Source: Promethearchaeota archaeon
GTDB taxonomy: Archaea; Asgardarchaeota; Heimdallarchaeia; Hodarchaeales; Hodarchaeaceae
Assembly: GCA_048939725.1 (NCBI GenBank)
Contig: JBHLPG010000056.1
Location: 1 to 19,001, forward strand
Reading direction: 5' to 3'
Length of the DNA stretch: 19,001 nt
The stretch's first letter is position 1. Every line of letters begins with the position of its first letter. This document shows, piece by piece, positions 2,703-18,752 of this stretch. The position numbers were made by a program, and so were the translations under genes. The notes under the pieces were generated by a model that made no database searches, had not been told where the DNA came from, and saw only the letters and a program-made list of their open reading frames with translations.

Positions 2703-4088
2703 TTGGAAGTAGCAGTAGATCTACATGCTCATTCAGTTTTTGCCGGTGGAACCCAAGCCCTCTCAATAACACCCAAAACAGAAGCTGATAATCAGAAAAA
2801 GGCTATTTCTCATTTATCAAAAACGAATCAAACAATGCCATTAAAGGGTATTGATGTCATTGGTACAGGAGATTGTCAATTCACCTTATGGACTAATATA
2901 CTTAAAGAAATTCTCATTGAAGATATGGAAGGTGTCTTTCTGCTTCAAGATCAGAGAAAGACTCGCTTCATTCTACAAACAGAGATGATATTTACAGCAA
3001 AAATAGGTAAATACTCAAAAGAGACACATATTATCTTTCTTTTCCCTAATTTTTCTTCTGTGGATGAATTTCGTACATTACTAGATAGATGGGGGGTTAA
3101 ACATAAAAAAATGGCAAGACCATTTATTACCTGTAAATCCTCTAGTCAGGTTGCTCAGCGTCTTCATTCTATTTTAGATTTGGATCCTTGGATTGAAGCC
3201 ATTCCCTCCCATATAATGACACCACAAGGTGTTTTTGGAACTGGAAAAGGAAATATTCGAATTAACCACTTAGAAGATTTTTTTGGTTCTGCTACCTCAA
3301 GATTGCAAGTCTTTGAGACTGGATTATCCGCTGATCCAGAATTTTTATCTTTGATCCCAGAATTAGACGATAAAGTGCTAATTTCAAATTCTGATGCACA
3401 CTCAAGTGCTTTACATAGGATGGGACGCGAATTTACGGTGGTATCTACCTTAAAAACTGATTATAAGAATATTATCAAGGCTTTGCGTAATAATAATGTC
3501 TTGTATACTGCTGAATTTCCTCCAGAAGAAGGACGGTTTTTTCTAACAGGTCACCGAGCTGGAAGGAAACGACCAGGTTTTCATGGTGACAGTGATTACT
3601 GTTTCTTTTCTCCTCAAAATGTACCTTCTCATGATGTTTGCCCAATATGTAATAAACCTCTAACTATAGGTGTATTCCAGAGATGTGTTGAGATTAGTAA
3701 TGCTCAAGGTGGAAAAAGAGAGCTTGGAGGAACTACTTCCTTCAAAAAATTCATTCGTATGGTACCGTTGATAGATATATTGGGTCATGTGCTAGAAATA
3801 AAAACTAAGACTGCAAAATCATTAATCACGAAATATCGACAGATTATAGACATTATTGGCCCCGAACGCGTGTTATGGCAAATGGCCTCTGAAGAAGTCG
3901 AAAGTAAACTGAATGATCATATAGAAAACCACATTCTGAAAGCAATTCTCAAAGTAAAAGCTGGGGATTTTACATTTGAACCATATGGGTATGATGGAGT
4001 TTATGGTACTCTAGTAATTGGCCAGAGAGGAAATTATAAAAATGTAAATGTGATTCATTCTTCAAAACCAATTCAACAAACACTTTAA
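2703..4088 (+). CDS. endoQ: Endonuclease Q (PHP-domain nuclease acting at deaminated bases, with a Zn finger)
   Basis: The motif series matches my recollection of Thermococcales EndoQ. DLHAHS (PHP His pair), IGTGD, HIMTP, ETGLSADPEF, SNSDAHSSALHRMGREF, then the C/H-rich FFLTGHRAG...C...CPICNKPLTIGV zinc finger. Length is 461 aa. Confidence 0.8.
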   Translation: MEVAVDLHAHSVFAGGTQALSITPKTEADNQKKAISHLSKTNQTMPLKGIDVIGTGDCQFTLWTNILKEILIEDMEGVFLLQDQRKTRFILQTEMIFTAKIGKYSKETHIIFLFPNFSSVDEFRTLLDRWGVKHKKMARPFITCKSSSQVAQRLHSILDLDPWIEAIPSHIMTPQGVFGTGKGNIRINHLEDFFGSATSRLQVFETGLSADPEFLSLIPELDDKVLISNSDAHSSALHRMGREFTVVSTLKTDYKNIIKALRNNNVLYTAEFPPEEGRFFLTGHRAGRKRPGFHGDSDYCFFSPQNVPSHDVCPICNKPLTIGVFQRCVEISNAQGGKRELGGTTSFKKFIRMVPLIDILGHVLEIKTKTAKSLITKYRQIIDIIGPERVLWQMASEEVESKLNDHIENHILKAILKVKAGDFTFEPYGYDGVYGTLVIGQRGNYKNVNVIHSSKPIQQTL

Positions 4089-7240: not shown

Positions 7241-7247
7241 GCAATGA

Positions 7248-8225
7248 CTGATCTATAGCGATCGGTGGTTACCACTGTCAAGCATACTGCGAAGAATATT
7301 CAAAGGTAAGCCTGTTGAGAAATACGAAATAACTATCATTGGTCTCGACGGTGCAGGAAAAACTACAATCGTGAATCGATTATTACGCTCTGAATTTGTC
7401 CCTACAACACGAACTCTAGGTGTTAACTATCGTACTGTAAAATATCGTCAGATAGAGTTCAATTTGGTTGATTTGGGGGGGCAGGAAATCTATCGAAATC
7501 TTCTTTGGCACGATTCTTTAGATAAGGCTTCAGCTATCGTTTTTGTGTTAGATAGTGCTGATATTCGTATTTCCGAGGCATCTGAGGCTTTCTGGGATTC
7601 AATTCAGCGCAATGAAAAGGTTCCTGTCTTGTTTATTGCAAACAAAATTGATCTTCCAGGTGCTCGAGCATTTGACCGGATTGTTAAAGATCTCGATCTA
7701 CCACGTGCTCAAAGATCAGCGAGGTCCGTTGGACTTTTTCGAATCTCTGCAAAGACTGGTGAGAATTTTTACGATGCATTCGACTGGATAGCTGATATTC
7801 TCACGGGAGAAGAGTCTAAGTTTAAATGTAAGGTACGAGTGGTGATCTTAATCAATTTAGATACCCATCAGATATATACAACGAAATTCACGAACATAGA
7901 TCGTTTTGTTCTAGATCAATTGAATATGGGTATTAGTGAAACAGTAAAAGAGCTGTCAAAGAATTCAACTGGAATGGAGGTAATTACTGCGTCTGATTTG
8001 CAGCTTACTATAGTGAAGAATGATCCTTTAGTGATCGGCCTCATAATAGGCTATTCAGATTCTGTTGTGCGAGCTAAATTGATTGCTGAGAGGCTAATGA
8101 AAACAGCTTCTGCATCAATTGAAATTGATCAATTCGATTCACGAGTACTTTTAAAATTAATGAAGAAACAATGGCCTTTAGACATATACAAGCCACAAGT
8201 GCAAACTGAAGAAGAGACTGTCTGA
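7248..8225 (+). CDS. Arf/Arl-like small GTPase fused to a C-terminal longin/Roadblock-like alpha/beta domain (start codon unresolved)
   Basis: Arf-type motifs are present. P-loop GLDGAGKTT (7341-7367), TLGVNYRTVKY, G3 DLGGQ (7470-7484), NLLWHD, VFVLDSAD, G4 NKID (7641-7652), ISAKTGENFYDAFDWI. The ORF-track start GTG 7371 lies after the P-loop. The frame is open back to 7248, after TGA at 7245-7247. A non-GTPase extension of about 135 aa spans roughly 7818-8222. Confidence 0.8.
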   Translation: MIYSDRWLPLSSILRRIFKGKPVEKYEITIIGLDGAGKTTIVNRLLRSEFVPTTRTLGVNYRTVKYRQIEFNLVDLGGQEIYRNLLWHDSLDKASAIVFVLDSADIRISEASEAFWDSIQRNEKVPVLFIANKIDLPGARAFDRIVKDLDLPRAQRSARSVGLFRISAKTGENFYDAFDWIADILTGEESKFKCKVRVVILINLDTHQIYTTKFTNIDRFVLDQLNMGISETVKELSKNSTGMEVITASDLQLTIVKNDPLVIGLIIGYSDSVVRAKLIAERLMKTASASIEIDQFDSRVLLKLMKKQWPLDIYKPQVQTEEETV

Positions 8226-11409: not shown

Positions 11410-11484
11410 TTATTAAAAGCCTCAAAAAAGTAAATCTGTTGATTTTACCACTCGATAGACATTTCTTTGGTCAAAACTCCTAAA

Positions 11485-11501
11485 AAGAAGAATATCTTCT
11501 T
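11485..11501. repeat. Perfect 7-bp inverted repeat AAGAAGA-ATA-TCTTCTT in the divergent intergenic region
   Basis: Read directly from the sequence. It lies between the divergently transcribed cinA-like gene and the 1171-aa gene. It could be an operator or a hairpin, and its function is unknown. Confidence 0.3.
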
Positions 11502-11791
11502 AATTTTTCTATCCAAAATGACTTGAATCTTTTCTATGTTCAATATGAGATTAAATTTGTTTAATAGAAATGTATTAATTTTTCTATGAATTATGAAGCA
11601 GGGTACTTATACTACAGAGCTCATTCAACATTTAAAGGTTAAATCTATTTGATCTGATTAGATTAATTTAAAAAAGGAGTAAGCTATCGTGAACTAAAGT
11701 ATGTCATTGTAATACACATATATAACTGAAACATATAAAGAACCCTCTCTGGAAGTAGTAACGAAAAGAAACTACACATCATCTTCAAAGG

Positions 11792-14700
11792 ATGCTTGTT
11801 AAAATGTCATCGGAAGGAAAGCTTCTGGTTTCAAAAGAAGTACTTCATAAAATTAGAGATTTAGTGACTGAGTTACGCTCAATTGACCCCACAGTGCAAG
11901 TTGTCTCCGCATTAAATGAAGCCCAAAAATTAGTGATAGAAATCGAAAAACTAGAGAAAGCCTTACCAAAAGCTGGTTTCTTTAAAAAGAGGGGAATTAA
12001 TAAAACTCTTACTCAAGATAAGGAAAAGTACAACAAGCTGACAGAGGAGTTACTAAACGCTCTTTTGGTTGGATTTCGTAAAATTTACTTTGATCTGGCA
12101 AATAACATCAAAGAAATAGCTAAATTTATCCCCCAGGAAACAGAAACTATTCGGAAACTGCAAATTCCAAGCTTTGATGTAAACGAAATCCTGAAGTTTA
12201 GTTCACAAGTTCTGAGGACATATAACCAGATTTCTGAGGTTTTACGAGGGAAAAATGTTTCAATTTTGTTATTTAATCGTGAGATTATCGAGCTTTATGG
12301 AAAATTTGTTAATTTTGATGAAGAAAAGGTTCAAGTGACAAATCAGACGACAAAAACAAGTATTCATGTGATGACAATACCCGATTTACTTGAAGTTTAT
12401 AGTCTTTTAGATGCTGAAAATGCGTATCTAAAGCAGCGGAGGAAAGGTACAGAAGGCAAAATACAATTGGCAATTGTTCAAATGTCCTCTGAACTACAAC
12501 AGCATATTGATACTGTTGCATCAATTGGTTTAGACCTTTGGAATAAAATTGATATTTTGAAAGAGGAAGTTCAAGACGTTCAGACAAGTGCGGACAGAAC
12601 AACTTCAGTTGAAACTCTTATCTCGTTAGAGAAACGACTTAATTCCCTTAGTAATGAGTTTATCAACATTTTACGGACATATGAAATATCCCTTAAGACA
12701 GAAACAGATGATCAAATTGGACGAATAATTCAGATCTTTGGGAAGGAAGGACTAGAGTCTACTTTTTCCCCAGCTCCAGAAACAGATATATCATCTACAA
12801 TTATTCCAACTATTATCCAGGATATCGAGAAAATTCGTTCTTGGCGCCAACAGCAGATAATTGCTACAAAAAAGATTCTTAGTACATCAGAGCTAATCAA
12901 TTCATCCAAAGCAATTCGTGCGATGAAGATACCAGTCCCTCCTAACATTGAGAAAGATGTACGGGCGATAGAGAAAGAAGCAGCAAAAACAAGCGACCTT
13001 CAAGAGTGGGTAGAACTAGCAAAAAGGTATCATGACTTGAAAACATCCCTTGCTGGCGAATGCCAGAATTATTTTTTCCGACTACTCGAAAATCCACATA
13101 TTCAAGAGGTCATTAACCTAAGTGAAGGGCCACAGATACCTACCATTCGCGATTTTGAAGCTCTTAGTCCCAGTGAATTAAGTAGTAAAGCTCGTGAGAT
13201 CAAGGATTGGGAGACTCGTTTGGTTGCTTATTTTTCTAAACCCGCTCAACAAAGCCTCAGACAGAATTTATTAAATTTATATGATTCTCGTGAAAGTTTA
13301 CGGGATATTATGTCACCTGAGTTGAAAGAACAAATCGATTATCAAAGAAAGCAGAAGATTGCAGAGGAAATTGATATTCGTGACTTAGTTCATGAGATTG
13401 AGGGGTTGCATAGACTTAATGCAAACATTAAAACTGAGCTTTGGAATAAAATAGATAATGAGATACATCCCATTTACAATCAACTTACAAATCTCGAAAC
13501 AATTCCTCCAAAATTAAAAATACATGTTCCAATTCTCACAATAGACGATTTAAAATCCTTCCGAGAAGAAGCCAGTGAAGCAGCTCAAAAAAGTATTCAG
13601 GAGCTGTTAGATGAATATGAAAAGATACCACTGTGGAAATACAAGATATCCTCCCGAATCCGTGAAAATTTGAAAGCAATTCCTTTTCCTTTAATACCTG
13701 TAGAGACACGATTCGATTTAAGGGAAAAACGTAATCAAATTGTTGATTTAATAGATGATTTTTCAGAACAAGGGAACATTGAAGCCGTAATCAAAGAATA
13801 TATTTCTTTCTTAGAAACAATTGAAGAAAATAAGAAGGAAATTCTTATTGAATTGAAAAAACAAATAGGGAATCTTGAAGGAGTCGATAGAAGACTCTTT
13901 AGATTATTAAAATCTCGGAAAACTAGTTTAATCTATTCTACAGATAAAGAAATAGATAATCTTGATTATTCTGAAGCTTTAACAGAATTCTGGCAATTAT
14001 CTGCCTTTATCGATCGAAAAGCTTCAACATTAGCAGAGCAAATGGAACGTGAGATTTCCTCTCATATACAGGACTATTCAAAACTTCCTAGTCAGTATTC
14101 AGGTTTTTTTGATGAAACCTTGAAACTTATGGAAGAGAAAATGGATGAAATTAAAACCCATAAAGATATTGTCCGTTTAGTTAATGTTTTTGAGAGTTAT
14201 AGCTTGGAAAGCTTACAAATGGCAAAAGATTCCTTAGCCAAACTTCATCAAAATCTCTATAATTGGCTGAGGGTTAGTCTCCCTAGGATAAATGAAATAA
14301 CACCTCTTCATGAAGCGATTTTTAGTGCGGAGAAGAAAGTTGCTGATTTTGAAGCTGAGGAAGTATCTCATGAGCGATTAGCTCACAAATTAAGACAGTT
14401 GATATTCCTTTATGATACGGAAATCTTGGCTGTTTTACTAGCACATGGAGTTCAGGAATCACGAAGGGTTCTGAAAAATGTTAACGACTTGAAAGATGTC
14501 GGGATCAATATTATTGAGTATGTTGGGAGTTATATCGAAAATTTCAGTCAAATAATTGTCAAAAACCAAGAAGATGTTCAATTACGAGAAGTAACTGATG
14601 TTTTCATCGAAATTGATAATTTACAGACTGATACTAAAGCTTGTCGTGAAATTCGATCCATGGGAAAACGCTATATTACTGAAATTCAAGATTCCGTGGA

Positions 14701-15307
14701 ATATTCATTTAATCATTATCAAATTGACTTACGTCAGGATGAACGAGTTGATCTAGCATATCTTAGCAAATTTCAAGAAATAGCAACGACTGATCACGTT
14801 AGTCGTTTAACTGAAGCTATCCTTGAATTAGCTGCAGTTAGAACCTCTGTAATTGAAATTATGAAAGCAATTGAGAAAAGTCGAAATGCTGCTCTACAGG
14901 CCGAGTTGGGGGAGTTAGAATATTATTCTGACATTCAAGAAGTGTTCAAACGATATACAAAGGAAGCATCAGAAAAGATATTCCCATTGTCAGAATTAAT
15001 TAAAGCTCGTGAGGAATTTCTTGATTCTCATGATCTTAGATATATTCTAGAGTTATTACCAAAAATAGATGAGCAAAGAAATGAGTGGAAAAACGTATCA
15101 ATACAGTTAAACCATTGGCACCGAGCTGTTCGAATGTTTCGACCTCGTTACACCCCAACAGAGAGTAGAGATGAAAATTTACGATTTTATAAAGAAATAT
15201 CTAAGAAAATCAAAGATACATATCCTCACAATGAAGTAATTCGTTCTTATTTAAGTCTAGTAATGAAATTACTAATTGAAATTAAATCTGGAATAAAATT
15301 GGAGTAA
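11792..15307 (+). CDS. Giant (1171 aa) all-helical/coiled-coil protein with internal periodicity, no recognisable enzymatic motif
   Basis: Uninterrupted 3.5-kb ORF rich in Glu/Lys/Ile/Leu and poor in Gly. Pro occurs mainly at helix boundaries. No Walker A (GxxxxGK[ST]) is present. An alternative start is ATG 11804. It lies 40 nt upstream of the tubulin-like gene on the same strand. Confidence 0.8.
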   Translation: MLVKMSSEGKLLVSKEVLHKIRDLVTELRSIDPTVQVVSALNEAQKLVIEIEKLEKALPKAGFFKKRGINKTLTQDKEKYNKLTEELLNALLVGFRKIYFDLANNIKEIAKFIPQETETIRKLQIPSFDVNEILKFSSQVLRTYNQISEVLRGKNVSILLFNREIIELYGKFVNFDEEKVQVTNQTTKTSIHVMTIPDLLEVYSLLDAENAYLKQRRKGTEGKIQLAIVQMSSELQQHIDTVASIGLDLWNKIDILKEEVQDVQTSADRTTSVETLISLEKRLNSLSNEFINILRTYEISLKTETDDQIGRIIQIFGKEGLESTFSPAPETDISSTIIPTIIQDIEKIRSWRQQQIIATKKILSTSELINSSKAIRAMKIPVPPNIEKDVRAIEKEAAKTSDLQEWVELAKRYHDLKTSLAGECQNYFFRLLENPHIQEVINLSEGPQIPTIRDFEALSPSELSSKAREIKDWETRLVAYFSKPAQQSLRQNLLNLYDSRESLRDIMSPELKEQIDYQRKQKIAEEIDIRDLVHEIEGLHRLNANIKTELWNKIDNEIHPIYNQLTNLETIPPKLKIHVPILTIDDLKSFREEASEAAQKSIQELLDEYEKIPLWKYKISSRIRENLKAIPFPLIPVETRFDLREKRNQIVDLIDDFSEQGNIEAVIKEYISFLETIEENKKEILIELKKQIGNLEGVDRRLFRLLKSRKTSLIYSTDKEIDNLDYSEALTEFWQLSAFIDRKASTLAEQMEREISSHIQDYSKLPSQYSGFFDETLKLMEEKMDEIKTHKDIVRLVNVFESYSLESLQMAKDSLAKLHQNLYNWLRVSLPRINEITPLHEAIFSAEKKVADFEAEEVSHERLAHKLRQLIFLYDTEILAVLLAHGVQESRRVLKNVNDLKDVGINIIEYVGSYIENFSQIIVKNQEDVQLREVTDVFIEIDNLQTDTKACREIRSMGKRYITEIQDSVEYSFNHYQIDLRQDERVDLAYLSKFQEIATTDHVSRLTEAILELAAVRTSVIEIMKAIEKSRNAALQAELGELEYYSDIQEVFKRYTKEASEKIFPLSELIKAREEFLDSHDLRYILELLPKIDEQRNEWKNVSIQLNHWHRAVRMFRPRYTPTESRDENLRFYKEISKKIKDTYPHNEVIRSYLSLVMKLLIEIKSGIKLE

Positions 15308-15347
15308 TATTCCCTATAAACAGATATTAAAAAAAGAGTGTGTCAAA

Positions 15348-16718
15348 ATGTCAATTGAAGGTGGACCAGAATCAGAGATCTTTGCAATTGGAATTGGTGA
15401 ATGTGGTAGTAATCTTGTGGGAAGCTACCTAGCCAGATCTAAGAAAGGCGAGCTACCTCAACGTATTAGAGAATATCTGGTACTAAATACTGATCGTGGC
15501 GATTTATTAAAAGCCCGAAAAAAATATTCCATTTCAAAAAATCGAACTCTTCTCTATTCAGACGCTGAAATTGGTGTCGGGGGAAAATTCTCTGCGGGAT
15601 ACGAATCGGTTATGAACTCTCAAGATATTATTCTAAATCAATTACAAGGTTTGGGCTACGAAGGGATTAGTGGTTTTTGCATTTTTACCAGCTTTGGGGG
15701 TGGAACTGGATGTGGGGGGACTCCTGCTTTAATACAATTGTTAAGAAAGCGGTTCGCTGAGGAGGAAAAGCGTAAGATCTTCATTTATGTTTTTGGGGTC
15801 TTACCATTTGTTAATCAATCATCTGAAGCAGTAAATAGTGTCTGGGCTTTATCAAAATTACTCCGACTTCAGCTTGAGGAAGGAAATATGGGACCTGATT
15901 TAATACTTCTTCTTTCTAACAGAACAATGCTTGAGAGGGTTTTAAGCTGGCAACGTGGGGAATCCGTTGATTTGTTGAGTCGTCAAATAGGAAAAGATCT
16001 AGCTGACTTGAGCAGTGAGCAAGTAAGCTCCAGTATTCCTGCTGTTATTGGCCAAGACGGGACAGCTTATCCAGCTCAGCTAGAAGAAGCATTTGTAGAA
16101 TTGGTTAACCCTCTAGCCTTGGAATCCATAGCTGAAATGTTATCCCCAGGAGTACCTGAAGTTGGGAAAGAAGTCTTACCTACAACTGATATTGGTGATT
16201 TCGCTCTAAAATTAGATAGTGTGGTTGTTCCAGCTATGTTTGATGATTTAGCTGTTTTTCCAGAAGTTGGAGGGATGGATTCACAGCTTTCTACTGCAGT
16301 TGAATATACTCTTTCTAATTGTAGCTTGACAGATATGGGAACAAACCCCACAGCTTCTTCTGTTTTTTCGGTACTCAGTGGACCACAGAATATTGCACGC
16401 GTAGAATATGATCCGCTTTTGAAAAAAGCATTGGCACCTTTTTTAGCTAAAGGAGCAAGTATCTCTCCAACATATTGTGCCTATGATGATGATAATACAA
16501 GAGCATCTCTTCTCCTGTTATTCGGCCTTCCAAAAATCCCAGAACTTCATGATATTCTTGAAGAAGCTAAAGCACTCATAAACCTTCATAGTGGAGACTC
16601 TGAATTAAAACAACATTGGTTTAAACGGTCTAAAGGTACAACACGAAAGGAATTGGAAGAAGCAGTGAGCGATTTAGAAAAATTATTTGGATATTATATT
16701 AAACCAGAAAAAGTTTAA
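15348..16718 (+). CDS. Divergent tubulin/FtsZ/CetZ-superfamily GTPase
   Basis: T1-like GIGECGSNLVG (15390-15422), NTDRGDL (15486-15506), tubulin signature GGGTGCGG followed by TPALIQLL (15696-15719 onward), VLPFVNQSSEAVNSVWALS, LLLSNRTML, and T7-like TTDIGDF followed by ALKL (16182-16202 onward). Confidence 0.8.
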   Translation: MSIEGGPESEIFAIGIGECGSNLVGSYLARSKKGELPQRIREYLVLNTDRGDLLKARKKYSISKNRTLLYSDAEIGVGGKFSAGYESVMNSQDIILNQLQGLGYEGISGFCIFTSFGGGTGCGGTPALIQLLRKRFAEEEKRKIFIYVFGVLPFVNQSSEAVNSVWALSKLLRLQLEEGNMGPDLILLLSNRTMLERVLSWQRGESVDLLSRQIGKDLADLSSEQVSSSIPAVIGQDGTAYPAQLEEAFVELVNPLALESIAEMLSPGVPEVGKEVLPTTDIGDFALKLDSVVVPAMFDDLAVFPEVGGMDSQLSTAVEYTLSNCSLTDMGTNPTASSVFSVLSGPQNIARVEYDPLLKKALAPFLAKGASISPTYCAYDDDNTRASLLLLFGLPKIPELHDILEEAKALINLHSGDSELKQHWFKRSKGTTRKELEEAVSDLEKLFGYYIKPEKV

Positions 16719-16722
16719 GGTG
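16717..16722 (+). promoter_or_regulatory. Shine-Dalgarno AAGGTG overlapping the tubulin-like stop codon
   Basis: AAGGTG lies 10 nt upstream of TTG 16733. The gap between the two genes is only 14 nt, which is consistent with translational coupling. Confidence 0.4.
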
Positions 16723-16732
16723 CTAGATCAAA

Positions 16733-17794
16733 TTGGACAGAAAAGATCCCCCAAGGTTTGAATACACTAACAAAGAACATCCAAACTCTAATGAATCTAA
16801 TGAAAAATCATCTGACCAAGATGAAGAAAAACTCCCTTCATCTGATTTTTGGATGTCCAGGGGAAACATGGGTGAGAAGATAAATATCCTTATAGGATTA
16901 AATCTCGTTCTTATAAACTTAGTTTCCTCATTTATGCTAACTAAGGATGATCCTATTCCTGGTGATTTGGTTAAAAGTCTAATCAAAACCCAGGAATTTC
17001 TTAATAAAATGGTCATGCAGCCAGAAAAAGGGTTAGAAATTTTAGAAAATATTGAAATAGTTTACTCCAAAGTGGCCACATTAATGGAGGGAGTTACAAA
17101 TTCTACTATGTCAACCATTGCTTTAGAAAAGAAACCTCAGGATGTCCCAGAAAATGTCTTTGGTTTATTTCAAAGAAATGCAGTCTACCTAGATAAATGG
17201 GGGATAATTGAAAGTATCGAAAACTTAATCGCTTCTTACTCAAATTTATCTCATATAGGTTTTCCGAATTTTTACTTCACTGCGAGTAAAGAGTTGCATC
17301 GTTATGAATTGACACAGGATCCTGTTTCAAACCAATATGATATTATTCAAATACCCTCCTTTCAACTTAGAAATCTGGTAAGTAAGTTATTACGTGAAGC
17401 ACCCGCAGCCCGTTTATTACAAAATCTTCGGAAAATGTTTCCTGCAGAAGAAGATTCAGCTCTTACTTCAATAGAACAAGATGAAATCCATAACATTGTA
17501 GAATTGTATTATAAAAACATTTCAGAATATTTTAGCGGAACTCGCAGCTTGCAGGATTCTCTCCGCATCTCATCAGGGATCTTAAAGAACTATAACCTAG
17601 GAACAGGAGATTTGGAATCAAGAATACCTAATGTTTCTTTTAATATTACAAAAGAAATCAATTTAGAGCTTCAAAATACGGAGAATATATTGAAACAGTA
17701 TATATTATCTGAAACCATCATCCTGATCCATCGATTGAATGATTCACTCTTACAGAGTGAAAGATTTGTCCTCTTCTTAAGACATCTAAAATAA
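16733..17794 (+). CDS. Hypothetical protein with an acidic/polar N-terminal tail, one hydrophobic (possible transmembrane) segment and a helical C-terminal domain of about 280 aa
   Basis: The ORF lies directly downstream of the tubulin-like gene. The hydrophobic stretch INILIGLNLVLINLVSSFML covers aa 50-69 (16880-16939). The N-terminal 45 aa are rich in Asn/Ser/Glu/Asp/Lys. Alternative starts are ATG 16853 and ATG 16868. Confidence 0.6.
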   Translation: MDRKDPPRFEYTNKEHPNSNESNEKSSDQDEEKLPSSDFWMSRGNMGEKINILIGLNLVLINLVSSFMLTKDDPIPGDLVKSLIKTQEFLNKMVMQPEKGLEILENIEIVYSKVATLMEGVTNSTMSTIALEKKPQDVPENVFGLFQRNAVYLDKWGIIESIENLIASYSNLSHIGFPNFYFTASKELHRYELTQDPVSNQYDIIQIPSFQLRNLVSKLLREAPAARLLQNLRKMFPAEEDSALTSIEQDEIHNIVELYYKNISEYFSGTRSLQDSLRISSGILKNYNLGTGDLESRIPNVSFNITKEINLELQNTENILKQYILSETIILIHRLNDSLLQSERFVLFLRHLK

Positions 17795-17798
17795 TAAC

Positions 17799-17804
17799 TT
17801 TTTT
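17799..17804 (+). terminator. Oligo-T (T6) tract, possible archaeal termination signal
   Basis: CTTTTTTA begins 4 nt after the stop at 17792-17794. Archaeal RNA polymerase commonly terminates at T-runs. Weak evidence. Confidence 0.25.
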
Positions 17805-17820
17805 ATGAAATAAGACATAA

Positions 17821-17836
17821 TTAAAAATATAAATTT
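17821..17836 (+). promoter_or_regulatory. TATA-box-like TTAAAAATATAAATTT, possible internal promoter for the 288-aa gene
   Basis: An AT-rich TATA-like element lies about 50-65 nt upstream of ATG 17886. It is followed by a GAGGT Shine-Dalgarno motif at 17875-17879, 6 nt before the ATG. Confidence 0.3.
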
Positions 17837-17885
17837 CATAATTATTTCTTGTCAAGACTGAAGGAACTATGTGTGAGGTAAGAAT

Positions 17886-18752
17886 ATGGGAATAGAAGAT
17901 GGTATTAAGAATATCCAACAGATGACAATAGAGAATAAGCAATCCCTTAATAGAATTAAAGATGTTGTAAGCTCACTTCAAGGATTTCAAGATCCTTCTG
18001 AATCAATCCAAAAGCTCTCAATGGTAATACTTGGTTTTGAAGAAAACATTAATTCCTTGCTTAAACTAGTTGAATCCTCTCGAATAAGTTCAGAGTTACA
18101 ATCTTCAATTGAAAGCCTTCCTCAAATGATCTCAAGCTTAGAGGAATCACTTGGTAAGATTCTTAGTACTTTTGAAAAAACTTCTGAAGAAACAAAAAAT
18201 GATTTAAAATTTATAAAAGTCAGTTACGTTGAAGACGTTGTTGGAAATATGCGTAATTTATCTAACAAAATTACTGAAGAGGTGGGTGGTTCCAACAACA
18301 GAATTACCGCGTTATATGAAGCAACAGTTGACCATTTTGGGGAAATAGTGGAAAAACTTAACAATGTTGAAAGTAGTTTAAACGCTCTAGTTGAGAATCA
18401 AGCAGATCAATTAGCCACAGTAGCAGATCTCAGGGATCGTGTTAGTGCAATCATTCAGGTTGAGTTAGCATCACTAAGAGATCGAATTGCAATATATCTT
18501 GAGACATCGATAAATGAGTTAAAAACATCAGTAACAGAACGCTTGGCTACCCAGGATGGTACTCTTCAAAACTTGACAAACGTCACCCGACAATTAACCC
18601 AGAACATTAATGCTTTACCTGAATTAGTAAAACAGCAAATAGAAGCAGCAGTTGAAACAAGAGTCACCACTGAACTCACTTCAATGGAAAAAGAAATGAA
18701 AAAGATGACTGCTTTTATTATCAGGGCCATGAAAGACAAAGATTCTTCATGA
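17886..18752 (+). CDS. Coiled-coil/helical-repeat protein (288 aa), function unknown
   Basis: ATG with a GAGGT Shine-Dalgarno motif. The sequence is almost free of Pro and Gly and is rich in Ser/Glu/Leu/Ile/Asn/Thr/Gln with heptad-like spacing (e.g. LASLRDRIAIYLETSINELKTSVTERL, LQNLTNVTRQLTQNINALPELVKQQIEAAVE). Confidence 0.7.
   Translation: MGIEDGIKNIQQMTIENKQSLNRIKDVVSSLQGFQDPSESIQKLSMVILGFEENINSLLKLVESSRISSELQSSIESLPQMISSLEESLGKILSTFEKTSEETKNDLKFIKVSYVEDVVGNMRNLSNKITEEVGGSNNRITALYEATVDHFGEIVEKLNNVESSLNALVENQADQLATVADLRDRVSAIIQVELASLRDRIAIYLETSINELKTSVTERLATQDGTLQNLTNVTRQLTQNINALPELVKQQIEAAVETRVTTELTSMEKEMKKMTAFIIRAMKDKDSS

Follow-up and report, generated by a model that had tools for sequence, protein, structure and literature searches.

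The closest described relatives of the system considered here form a small clade of the tubulin superfamily, Asg.Tub, introduced as a "CetZ-like group in Asgardarchaeota" on the basis of four sequences, with no operon or partner families defined (Santana-Molina et al. 2023, Front Microbiol 13:1100249; PMC9871819). In the published tree, the clade is fully supported (100%), has a stem of 2.0 substitutions per site and lies outside the canonical CetZ node as a weakly supported (62%) sister to Halo.Tub. Its position was unstable between CetZ and tubulins and was left unsettled, the authors concluding that Asg.Tub is closer to CetZ than to tubulin. A hidden Markov model (HMM) of its C-terminal region matched nothing else, the HMMs of the CetZ and Asg.Tub C-termini giving no cross-match, and its neighbours were reported as "unknown genes," mostly with coiled-coil regions, the genome context of CetZ being unrelated (PMC9871819). 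Here we analyse a four-gene cluster in a stretch of 19,001 nucleotides (nt) of contig JBHLPG010000056.1 from a metagenome-assembled Promethearchaeota archaeon (assembly GCA_048939725.1; hereafter the window), whose second gene encodes a GTPase that we assign to this clade by alignment. Our interpretation, held with moderate confidence, is that the locus is a chromosomal, Asgard-specific tubulin-superfamily filament system with a core operon of three genes.

The first-pass annotation of the window had described four co-directional open reading frames (ORFs) separated by 40, 14 and 91 nt, and the ORF listing bears this out. We refer to the genes, in their order on the + strand, as W1 to W4 (lengths in amino acids, aa):

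11792-15307, + strand: W1, 1171 aa, ATG start
15348-16718, + strand: W2, 456 aa, ATG start, tubulin-superfamily GTPase assigned to the Asg.Tub family
16733-17794, + strand: W3, 353 aa, TTG start
17886-18752, + strand: W4, 288 aa, ATG start, helical or coiled-coil-like by sub-threshold matches

W2 had been taken for a divergent member of the tubulin superfamily, which is what we find, and it lies outside canonical CetZ and FtsZ. It matches Pfam Tubulin PF00091 with 65.1 bits (cut-off 33, E 1.4e-17) and has the N-terminal, Rossmann-type GTPase domain of the tubulin/FtsZ superfamily with its T1 and T4 signatures. Against the FtsZ equivalog TIGR00065 it reaches 31 bits where the cut-off is 295, and it is thus not an FtsZ; against Pfam Tubulin_2, which we take to be of the FtsZ-like-1 type, it reaches 21.7 bits, below the cut-off of 27. 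When the PDB was searched with a profile of 29 family members, the best match was CetZ1 (4b46, E 1.4e-12), together with CetZ 3zid and CetZ2 4b45. OdinTubulin, BtubA, gamma-tubulin and AtubA matched at E ~1e-5, and TubZ was not among the 60 PDB matches listed. All of these matches are confined to the N-terminal domain, the CetZ alignment covering CetZ residues ~12-171 only. W2 shows neither the close similarity over both domains nor, going by the published alignment of the family, the H1-S2 insertion expected of a bona fide tubulin, and it lacks a CetZ-type C-terminal region.

Among 5.8 billion proteins searched, 152 had 50% identity or more to W2, and the best 120 of these homologues are at least 51% identical to the query. 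Those that are named all come from Asgard archaea, i.e., Hodarchaeales, Heimdallarchaeota, Thorarchaeota, one "Loki" and one "Hermod" (taxonomic labels are the depositors' own throughout), and the family is widespread in Heimdallarchaeia and Thorarchaeota. It divides into at least 11 subgroups with mutual identities of 49-68%, about 50% or more being kept between all 11. This floor is unusually high, and W2 is constrained as strongly as a core cytoskeletal protein. When read against the published alignment, the C-terminal half of the window W2 agrees at most positions with PWI48967.1 (Heimdall B3-JM-08), and because the latter is one of the aligned Asg.Tub sequences, we place W2 in the Asg.Tub family. 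Another homologue, P0069, is the Heimdall LC_3 protein, likewise included in their C-terminal alignment and from the same genome as OLS26264.1 of PMC9871819. Assigned in this manner, W2 falls outside the canonical CetZ clade of the published tree. The GTPase family is therefore known, yet uncharacterised, and the earlier suggestion that the module is undescribed does not hold for the family, already published as Asg.Tub. It does hold for the conserved module: we found no description in the literature of a conserved operon or of partner families. The name Asg.Tub itself was not met elsewhere in the literature searched.

The CetZ structures heading the PDB matches (4b46 with E 1.4e-12, 3zid and 4b45) lend themselves to another reading, in which W2 would be a divergent CetZ-type cell-shape protein acting alone or with dispersed partners, W1 and W3 being incidental neighbours. 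The conclusion of Santana-Molina et al. that the group is nearer to CetZ than to tubulin goes in the same direction (PMC9871819). We consider this reading quite unlikely, since their tree sets the clade outside canonical CetZ on its long stem, the C-terminal HMMs of the two groups do not cross-match, and the genome context of CetZ is unrelated (PMC9871819). Gene order, described below, also speaks against it.

The sequence of W2 carries five features of note:

15390-15413, + strand: T1 loop GIGECGSN, aa 15-22
15696-15719, + strand: T4 signature GGGTGCGG, aa 117-124
15936-16085, + strand: partly variable H6-H7 loop insertion of ~45 aa not present in tubulin or CetZ, aa ~197-246 by the family alignment
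16179-16199, + strand: T7 loop PTTDIGD, aa 278-284
16614-16688, + strand: C-terminal motif HWFKRSKG....EL..A..DL..LF, aa 423-447

Conservation of these motifs was counted in 118 full-length W2 homologues. Five of the eight T1 positions are invariant (G15, G17, E18, G20 and N22), C19 is found in 114/118 and S21 in 116/118, while position 16 is a variable hydrophobic residue. In the T4 signature GGGTGCGG, G and C are invariant and the other positions nearly so. Between T4 and the insertion, LPF..QSSE..N163..W and LLSN191 are invariant or nearly so, with N163 and S190-N191 invariant.

The T7 (synergy) loop, with its acidic residues after helix H7, is also present. The published L-INS-i alignment sets Asg.Tub VLPTTDIGDFALKL over yeast alpha-tubulin GSLNVDLNEFQTNL and Haloferax CetZ GESVVDSSEIINTL (PMC9871819), which brings W2 D281/D284 over tubulin NVDxxE and CetZ VVDxxE, with helix H7 aligned just ahead. 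Because of this placement, we regard D281/D284 as the T7 pair of W2 and as the counterparts of alpha-tubulin D251/E254. Each of the two residues (P-T-T-D281-x-x-D284-[FY]) is invariant in 118/118 homologues. N191 and D281 are 90 residues apart in W2 vs 45 in alpha-tubulin, with the partly variable insertion of ~45 residues lying in the H6-H7 loop, as the published alignment also shows. An alternative T7 site, L-G-x-D217-x-A-D220, was the first choice of hhalign. We rejected it: position 220 is Asp in only 72/118 homologues, and 26 residues would be left for H6 and H7, vs 45 in alpha-tubulin and ~43 in Escherichia coli FtsZ (counts on sequences entered by hand). With either candidate insertion deleted, hhalign gave equal scores to the D217/D220 and D281/D284 sites. 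For hhalign, alpha-tubulin and E. coli FtsZ were entered by hand instead of being drawn from a database, and what it gave is consistent with the published alignment.

In the tubulin superfamily, the T7 acidic pair activates GTP hydrolysis across the polymer interface. Since the nucleotide loops of W2 are intact and its T7 pair is invariant, we infer that it polymerises with GTP: it would bind the nucleotide through canonical T1-T6 loops and assemble head to tail, D281/D284 of one subunit completing the GTPase site of the next. A different possibility is that W2 is a non-polymerising or nucleator-like GTPase (cf. Misato and gamma-tubulin) that serves as a subunit of a discrete complex with W1 and W3, e.g., one coupled to small GTPases, with a role in regulation or trafficking. 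The very high conservation of W2 (at least 50% identity everywhere) would fit the many fixed contacts of such a complex. However, strict invariance of an acidic pair whose known role is exerted between polymer subunits is at odds with a GTPase that does not polymerise, and we regard this possibility as unlikely.

At the C-terminal end, W424, F425, K429, G430 and F447 are invariant and L446 is found in 117/118 homologues. Both hhalign and the published alignment align this motif to the H11'-H12 motif of tubulin, HWYvGEGM..EF.EA..D...L..DY; CetZ has no HW[FY] motif there in the published alignment (PMC9871819). Family proteins end 8-25 residues past L446-F447 in the family alignment, with no long linker of the kind that carries the partner-binding peptide of FtsZ.

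As for the gene neighbourhood, the first-pass annotation had asked whether it is conserved, and we find the neighbours of the GTPase to be syntenic in related as well as distant Asgard genomes. The nearest relatives of the window are Hodarchaeales (within Heimdallarchaeia), where 16 loci keep the order of the cluster as far as their contigs reach (contig ends truncate W1 in L014 and L017, and L006 ends within W3, hence without W4). Identity to the window in these loci is 83-97% for W2, 65-94% for W1, 42-69% for W3 and 41-80% for W4. Beyond them, where homology was confirmed by tblastn and jackhmmer, W1 and W2 were found together in further lineages, which, together with the second Hodarchaeales paralogue, gives six independent contexts in all: Hodarchaeales paralogue 1, Hodarchaeales paralogue 2, Thorarchaeota, L022, Heimdall LC_3 and L023. 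Protein lengths in the four contexts outside the Hodarchaeales are as follows:

L001/L002 and L004, Thorarchaeota: W1 871-897 aa, W2 460 aa, W3 355-359 aa
L022: W1 906 aa, W2 475 aa, W3 355 aa
L021, Heimdall LC_3: W1 1396 aa, W2 454 aa, W3 392 aa
L023, another lineage: W1 1311 aa, W2 449 aa, W3 602 aa

W1 is directly upstream of W2 in 6/6 contexts (the exceptions, L016 and L017, are within Hodarchaeales), and W3 is directly downstream of W2 in 5/6, the flanking genes being unrelated between contexts. Junctions are tight: the coding regions of L022 overlap by 1 and 4 nt, and the gaps in the Thorarchaeota locus L001 are 12 and 16 nt. Such order, kept between Heimdallarchaeia and Thorarchaeota despite unrelated flanks and despite identities of only 20-26% for W1 and W3 between Hodarchaeales and Thorarchaeota, is hard to reconcile with a lone CetZ-type protein whose neighbours are incidental. 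A slowly evolving GTPase, fast-evolving partners and tight junctions would instead fit stoichiometric co-expression of interacting proteins. Of the four-gene unit proposed at first, W1-W2-W3 stands as a conserved core, while W4 is confined to Hodarchaeales loci. Because of this, and because W4 probably has its own promoter, we limit the core to three genes.

Several observations weigh against this interpretation. Hodarchaeales loci share a wider neighbourhood too (IF-2B, Arf, a CDC48-like gene and MoCF), and since the whole neighbourhood is syntenic, conservation of the four genes there is uninformative on its own. In L016 and L017, inserted genes place W1 and W2 4.3 and 9.8 kb apart, respectively, so strict adjacency is dispensable, and this break also favours the CetZ-type reading. 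No W3 is found near the second Hodarchaeales paralogue. The C-terminal half of W2 alone has no significant similarity to tubulin or FtsZ (hhalign 0.2%), as likewise found in PMC9871819. Finally, the AlphaFold2 model of W1 has a predicted template modelling score (pTM) of 0.40, which leaves the overall shape of the model uncertain. The earlier proposal had itself named three findings that would count against it, namely loss of synteny in related genomes, a GTPase within an ordinary CetZ or FtsZ clade, and partners belonging to known families; we observed none of the three.

The stretches inserted in L016 (5711-9979) and L017 (159-10000) each hold, just upstream of W2, an extra ORF without a Pfam match. 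Its product has 1202 aa in L016, where the N-terminus is acidic and of low complexity, and 773 aa in L017, the two being 61% identical; the gap of ~9.8 kb in L017 also holds an AAA ATPase and other genes. In Thorarchaeota, a divergently oriented gene directly upstream of W1 encodes a WD40 beta-propeller protein of 626-656 aa (L001:5185-7065 and L004:3294-5264). Beta-propeller proteins also belong to the Halo_adaptin system (PMC10936438), of which the possibly related Halo.Tub is a component.

The second Hodarchaeales paralogue keeps the pair W1'-W2' and is found in the same genomes as the first. CP070695 holds both copies, L005 (97% identity) and L003 (54%), and the locus-tag prefixes of P0099 and the window protein are identical. 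In each of the three loci, a 311-aa protein without a known family, W1' (~1140 aa) and W2' (~447 aa) are encoded in this order:

L003:5568-14905, second paralogue locus
L024:309-9484, second paralogue locus
L025:3577-12745, second paralogue locus

We asked whether the 311-aa protein encoded upstream might be W3 or W4, and rejected both (hhalign probability <=0.2%). In 3/3 loci examined, the second paralogue adjoins a pair of Rag/Arf-like GTPase genes (Pfam Arf and Gtr1_RagA) encoding about 730 and about 300 aa with ~31% mutual identity. The pair has swapped order and reversed orientations in L024 relative to L003 and L025, and still adjoins W2'; by analogy, it recalls a RagA/RagC-type heterodimer. 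In 4/6 contexts, Arf-family genes also occur no farther than 10 kb from the module (7371-8225 in the window, L003:371-934, L021:1-468 and L023:749-1917). Both the constant company of the Rag/Arf-like pair and the nearby Arf-like genes speak for the nucleator-like reading of W2, with its coupling to small GTPases. Yet small GTPases are, by our own estimate, very abundant in Asgard genomes, and this proximity may therefore be due to chance.

W1 had been described as all-helical, and its AlphaFold2 model agrees, with a mean predicted local distance difference test score (pLDDT) of 81.5, helix assigned throughout by DSSP, and many helices of 30-45 residues. Neither W1 alone, nor a profile of 19 divergent members, nor these members one by one gave a match in Pfam, NCBIfam or PDB sequences. 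A Foldseek search of the PDB gave nothing significant, the best match being dynein heavy chain (E 0.19). An exhaustive phmmer search of 1.84 billion proteins found only 32 representative clusters of the family, in which full-length members range from ~860 to 1405 aa and the other members are shorter sequences. As far as these searches reach, W1 represents an Asgard-only, fast-evolving family. Two parts of the protein stand out:

12542-13687, + strand: three tandem W1 repeats of ~115-150 aa (aa 251-365, 366-480 and 481-632)
14939-15304, + strand: C-terminal ~120 aa of W1, with motif WH.x.RMF at ~aa 1109-1116, the best conserved part across lineages

The repeats, at least three in number, were detected by hhalign of sub-alignments, with probabilities of 97.8%, 94.2% and 88.4%, and each closes with a conserved Trp (W351, W473 and W615). 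In the conservation profile, aa ~400-650 are gapped in >40% of the 19 aligned members, and tblastn matches to Thorarchaeota skip ~aa 434-729 (L001/L002) or 362-601 (L004), the repeat region being largely missing from the ~900-aa homologues of this lineage. On account of these gaps and skipped stretches, the number of repeats appears to differ among lineages. Column conservation in the 19 divergent members is highest at aa 1050-1150, and the C-terminal ~120 aa might be the site where W1 binds the GTPase. Three known families were considered for W1 and rejected. For the gamma-tubulin-complex GCP/GRIP proteins, there was no Pfam GCP match at E<=1 and no GCP among the top 50 Foldseek matches in the PDB. 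For spectrin and PRC1/MAP65, there was no Pfam Spectrin or MAP65 match at E<=1, and PRC1 (4l6y) appeared in Foldseek only at E 0.34, with a probability of 0.20. The likeness to spectrin and MAP65 rods, i.e., a rod of ~115-aa helical repeats, would be one of analogy, not homology.

W3 was modelled with a mean pLDDT of 74.5. Its N-terminus is disordered and followed by a helix at residues 43-69, and its C-terminal helical domain (aa ~140-353) has a pLDDT >90 in most 10-residue blocks (range 66-96). Searches of PDB, Pfam and NCBIfam sequences gave no match, nor did Foldseek against the PDB (best E 0.64); 14 residues of W3 are invariant across clades. The single hydrophobic segment noted earlier is there, at residues 52-70, with a Kyte-Doolittle mean over 19 residues (KD19) of 2.09:

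16877-16942, + strand: hydrophobic helix of W3, KINILIGLNLVLINLVSSFML, aa 49-70

Its suggested role as a membrane anchor fares less well. From 2.09 in the window, KD19 of this helix falls to 1.6-1.8 among the other Hodarchaeales and to 1.4-1.6 among Thorarchaeota, and several W3 N-termini carry Asn inside the helix when their sequences are read. In LC_3, L022 and L023, the highest value anywhere in the protein stays under 1.35 and is found away from the N-terminus. Transmembrane grade is thus reached in Hodarchaeales only, which lends the anchor weak support there, and judging by these hydropathy values W3 proteins do not share a conserved transmembrane anchor.

W4 has no match above cut-off in Pfam or NCBIfam; weak, sub-threshold Pfam matches link it to families of helical or coiled proteins such as Apolipoprotein, BshC coiled coil and Fib_alpha, and the coiled coil described for it earlier is putative. 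It is present in 15/15 Hodarchaeales loci that reach past the third gene, with 41-80% identity, and was not found, even by jackhmmer, in Thorarchaeota, LC_3, L022, L023 or the loci of the second paralogue. It therefore looks like an accessory specific to Hodarchaeales loci. Homology between W3 and W4 was considered and rejected (hhalign probability 0.7%). That W1, W3 and W4 belong to no recognisable family, as first proposed, is in line with our Pfam and NCBIfam searches, and for W1 and W3 with the lack of a fold match in the PDB as well.

The regions around the genes are these:

11410-11791, + strand: AT-rich intergenic region before W1, shared with a divergent MoCF gene (sequence read), presumed promoter region of the operon
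17795-17885, + strand: W3-W4 spacer (sequence read by eye)
17799-17804, + strand: T6 run in this spacer
17821-17834, + strand: TATA-like TTAAAAATATAAAT in this spacer
17873-17879, + strand: Shine-Dalgarno-like GTGAGGT in this spacer

Because of the T6 run, the TATA-like box and the Shine-Dalgarno-like stretch ahead of it, W4 is probably a separate transcription unit with its own promoter. In the window, W3 is preceded by AGGTG. W1 has a second ATG at 11804; its M5 is nearly invariant and, because the homologue consensus begins MSSE, the true start is probably this second ATG.

In its general layout, with a tubulin-like GTPase gene and both small and large accessory genes in a single operon, the locus also resembles DNA-segregation cassettes such as TubZ-TubR-tubC or PhuZ, which would make W3 or W1 the adaptor. 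Nevertheless, Pfam, NCBIfam and PDB profile searches detected no DNA-binding domain in W1, W3 or W4. In the region 11410-11791, the only repeats are weak, AT-rich and present in two copies, with no iteron-like array that could serve as a centromere, and no relatives were found in IMG/VR. The locus is chromosomal, among housekeeping genes, with a position that is kept across Hodarchaeales, and the best matches of W2 are CetZ and tubulins, with TubZ missing from the 60 PDB matches listed. A partition cassette is the weakest of the three alternatives and highly improbable. Nor is there a sign of mobile or viral origin in IMG/VR, in the upstream region or in the G+C content, which is even over the window (0.32-0.41) with no island signature.

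The recurrence of the trio Asg.Tub-W1-W3 across distant Asgard lineages makes it probable that it encodes a filament system, in which the three proteins would physically interact. W1 would form a long rod of helical repeats, with a repeat number, and hence a length, that differs by lineage; it probably docks on the W2 polymer via its conserved C-terminal ~120 residues and may act as a scaffold, spacer or cross-linker. W3 would be an adaptor, its conserved helical domain binding the complex and its N-terminal hydrophobic helix perhaps tethering it, in some lineages, to the membrane or to another partner. W4 would be a later, Hodarchaeales-specific accessory. Membrane remodelling, also suggested at first, may be a cellular function of such a system.

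A more far-reaching joint reading can be offered only tentatively, and we would not rate it as probable. It holds that Asg.Tub, W1 and W3 make up a third ancient Asgard cytoskeleton, separate from both FtsZ1/2 and the seldom found true tubulins, which predates the split of Heimdallarchaeia and Thorarchaeota. Its polymer would present an H11-H12-like outer surface read by the giant W1, a possible prokaryotic counterpart of a microtubule-associated protein or a ruler on the filament, and the duplicated Hodarchaeales copy would be coupled to the Rag-like GTPase pair. If true, a tubulin-family filament was linked to small-GTPase signalling or trafficking before eukaryogenesis.

Elsewhere in the window, the Arf-like neighbour reported earlier is confirmed (Pfam Arf, 83.7 bits), the "longin-like" gene reads as a Folliculin-type protein of 437 aa (Pfam, 31.7 bits vs a cut-off of 23.3), and the Roadblock match stays below its cut-off (19.7 bits vs 23). 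Further genes encode Nre, IF-2B and MoCF by Pfam, and a 768-aa ORF has two Walker-A motifs and is CDC48-like by sequence reading. The following stretches have features of their own:

319-2687, left end: co-directional genes for Roadblock-like (sub-threshold), TFIIB-type zinc-ribbon and Folliculin-type 437-aa proteins, which could be parts of a small-GTPase regulatory system
2703-4088: 461-aa ORF starting MEVAVDLHAHS, with no Pfam match above cut-off (weak RHH_7, E 5e-4)
7248-8225: Arf-like ORF, whose listed GTG start at 7371 leaves out the P-loop

In the Arf-like ORF, GLDGAGKT is in frame upstream of the listed start, at 7341, as is the N-terminal helix SSILRRIFKG. A stop lies at 7245, and no ATG, GTG or TTG occurs from there to 7371. 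Orthologues have ATG or GTG directly ahead of SSILRRIF. The window has CTG (7275) at this position, which suggests either a non-canonical CTG start or a mutated start codon.

The evolution of the tubulin family in Asgard archaea bears directly on the origin of the eukaryotic cytoskeleton. True tubulins occur in only ~1% of Asgard genomes, whereas the W2 family is widespread both in Thorarchaeota and in Heimdallarchaeia, the latter having been proposed as the sister group of eukaryotes. Alongside it come two dedicated partner families without known relatives. Recent studies use the Asg.Tub clade merely as a phylogenetic outgroup. The three-gene module, its two partner families, the W1 repeats and the duplicated Hodarchaeales module appear to be undescribed. 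With the operon defined, a concrete trio of proteins is at hand that makes an additional Asgard tubulin-like filament system, with binding proteins of its own, testable.

How does this module compare with known systems? That it is unlike the partner sets of FtsZ-SepF/ZapA, TubZ-TubR-tubC, BtubAB-BtubC and FtsZ-like systems, as first claimed, is borne out, none of their partners being present. With TubZ-TubR-tubC, PhuZ, FtsZ-SepF/ZapA and FtsZ-like-1, it shares a tubulin-superfamily GTPase encoded beside dedicated partners. It differs from TubZRC in being chromosomal and without a DNA-binding adaptor, iterons or viral relatives, and from FtsZ and FtsZ-like-1, the latter a system of vWA protein, GTPase and OmpA (PMC2875224), in having no SepF, vWA, OmpA or second GTPase. 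BtubAB-BtubC (BtubC being the "bacterial kinesin light chain"), AtubAB and OdinTubulin belong to the same superfamily and form operons with helical accessory proteins, and the Asg.Tub motif resembles tubulin H11'-H12, a resemblance that is not significant alone. In contrast to these prokaryotic tubulins, Asg.Tub is encoded by one GTPase gene with no A/B pair, matches them at E ~1e-5 in the N-terminal domain only and is missing the tubulin H1-S2 insertion.

Halo.Tub, of the ESCRT-type Halo_adaptin system (PMC9871819; PMC10936438), is likewise a non-canonical tubulin-superfamily protein within a multi-gene system, proposed for protein sorting, and its sister relation to Asg.Tub is weakly supported (62%) and unstable. 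Its partners, Vps4, ESCRT-III and adaptin-like beta-propeller/immunoglobulin proteins, have no equivalent in the W1-W4 module. CetZ provides the best sequence match of the W2 GTPase domain, and in the published alignment both CetZ and Asg.Tub are without the long tubulin-specific insertion after H1 and have a T7 D..E/D pair. Asg.Tub differs from CetZ by its H6-H7 insertion of ~45 aa and C-terminal HW[FY] motif, its place outside the canonical clade, its other neighbours, and its occurrence in Asgard archaea rather than Euryarchaeota. Asg.Tub as described in PMC9871819 is the same protein family as W2, its coiled-coil neighbours of no known family having been noted there too. To that description the present analysis adds a family of 152 members in at least 11 subgroups, the W1-W2-W3 gene order, a second, paralogous module and descriptions of partner structure.

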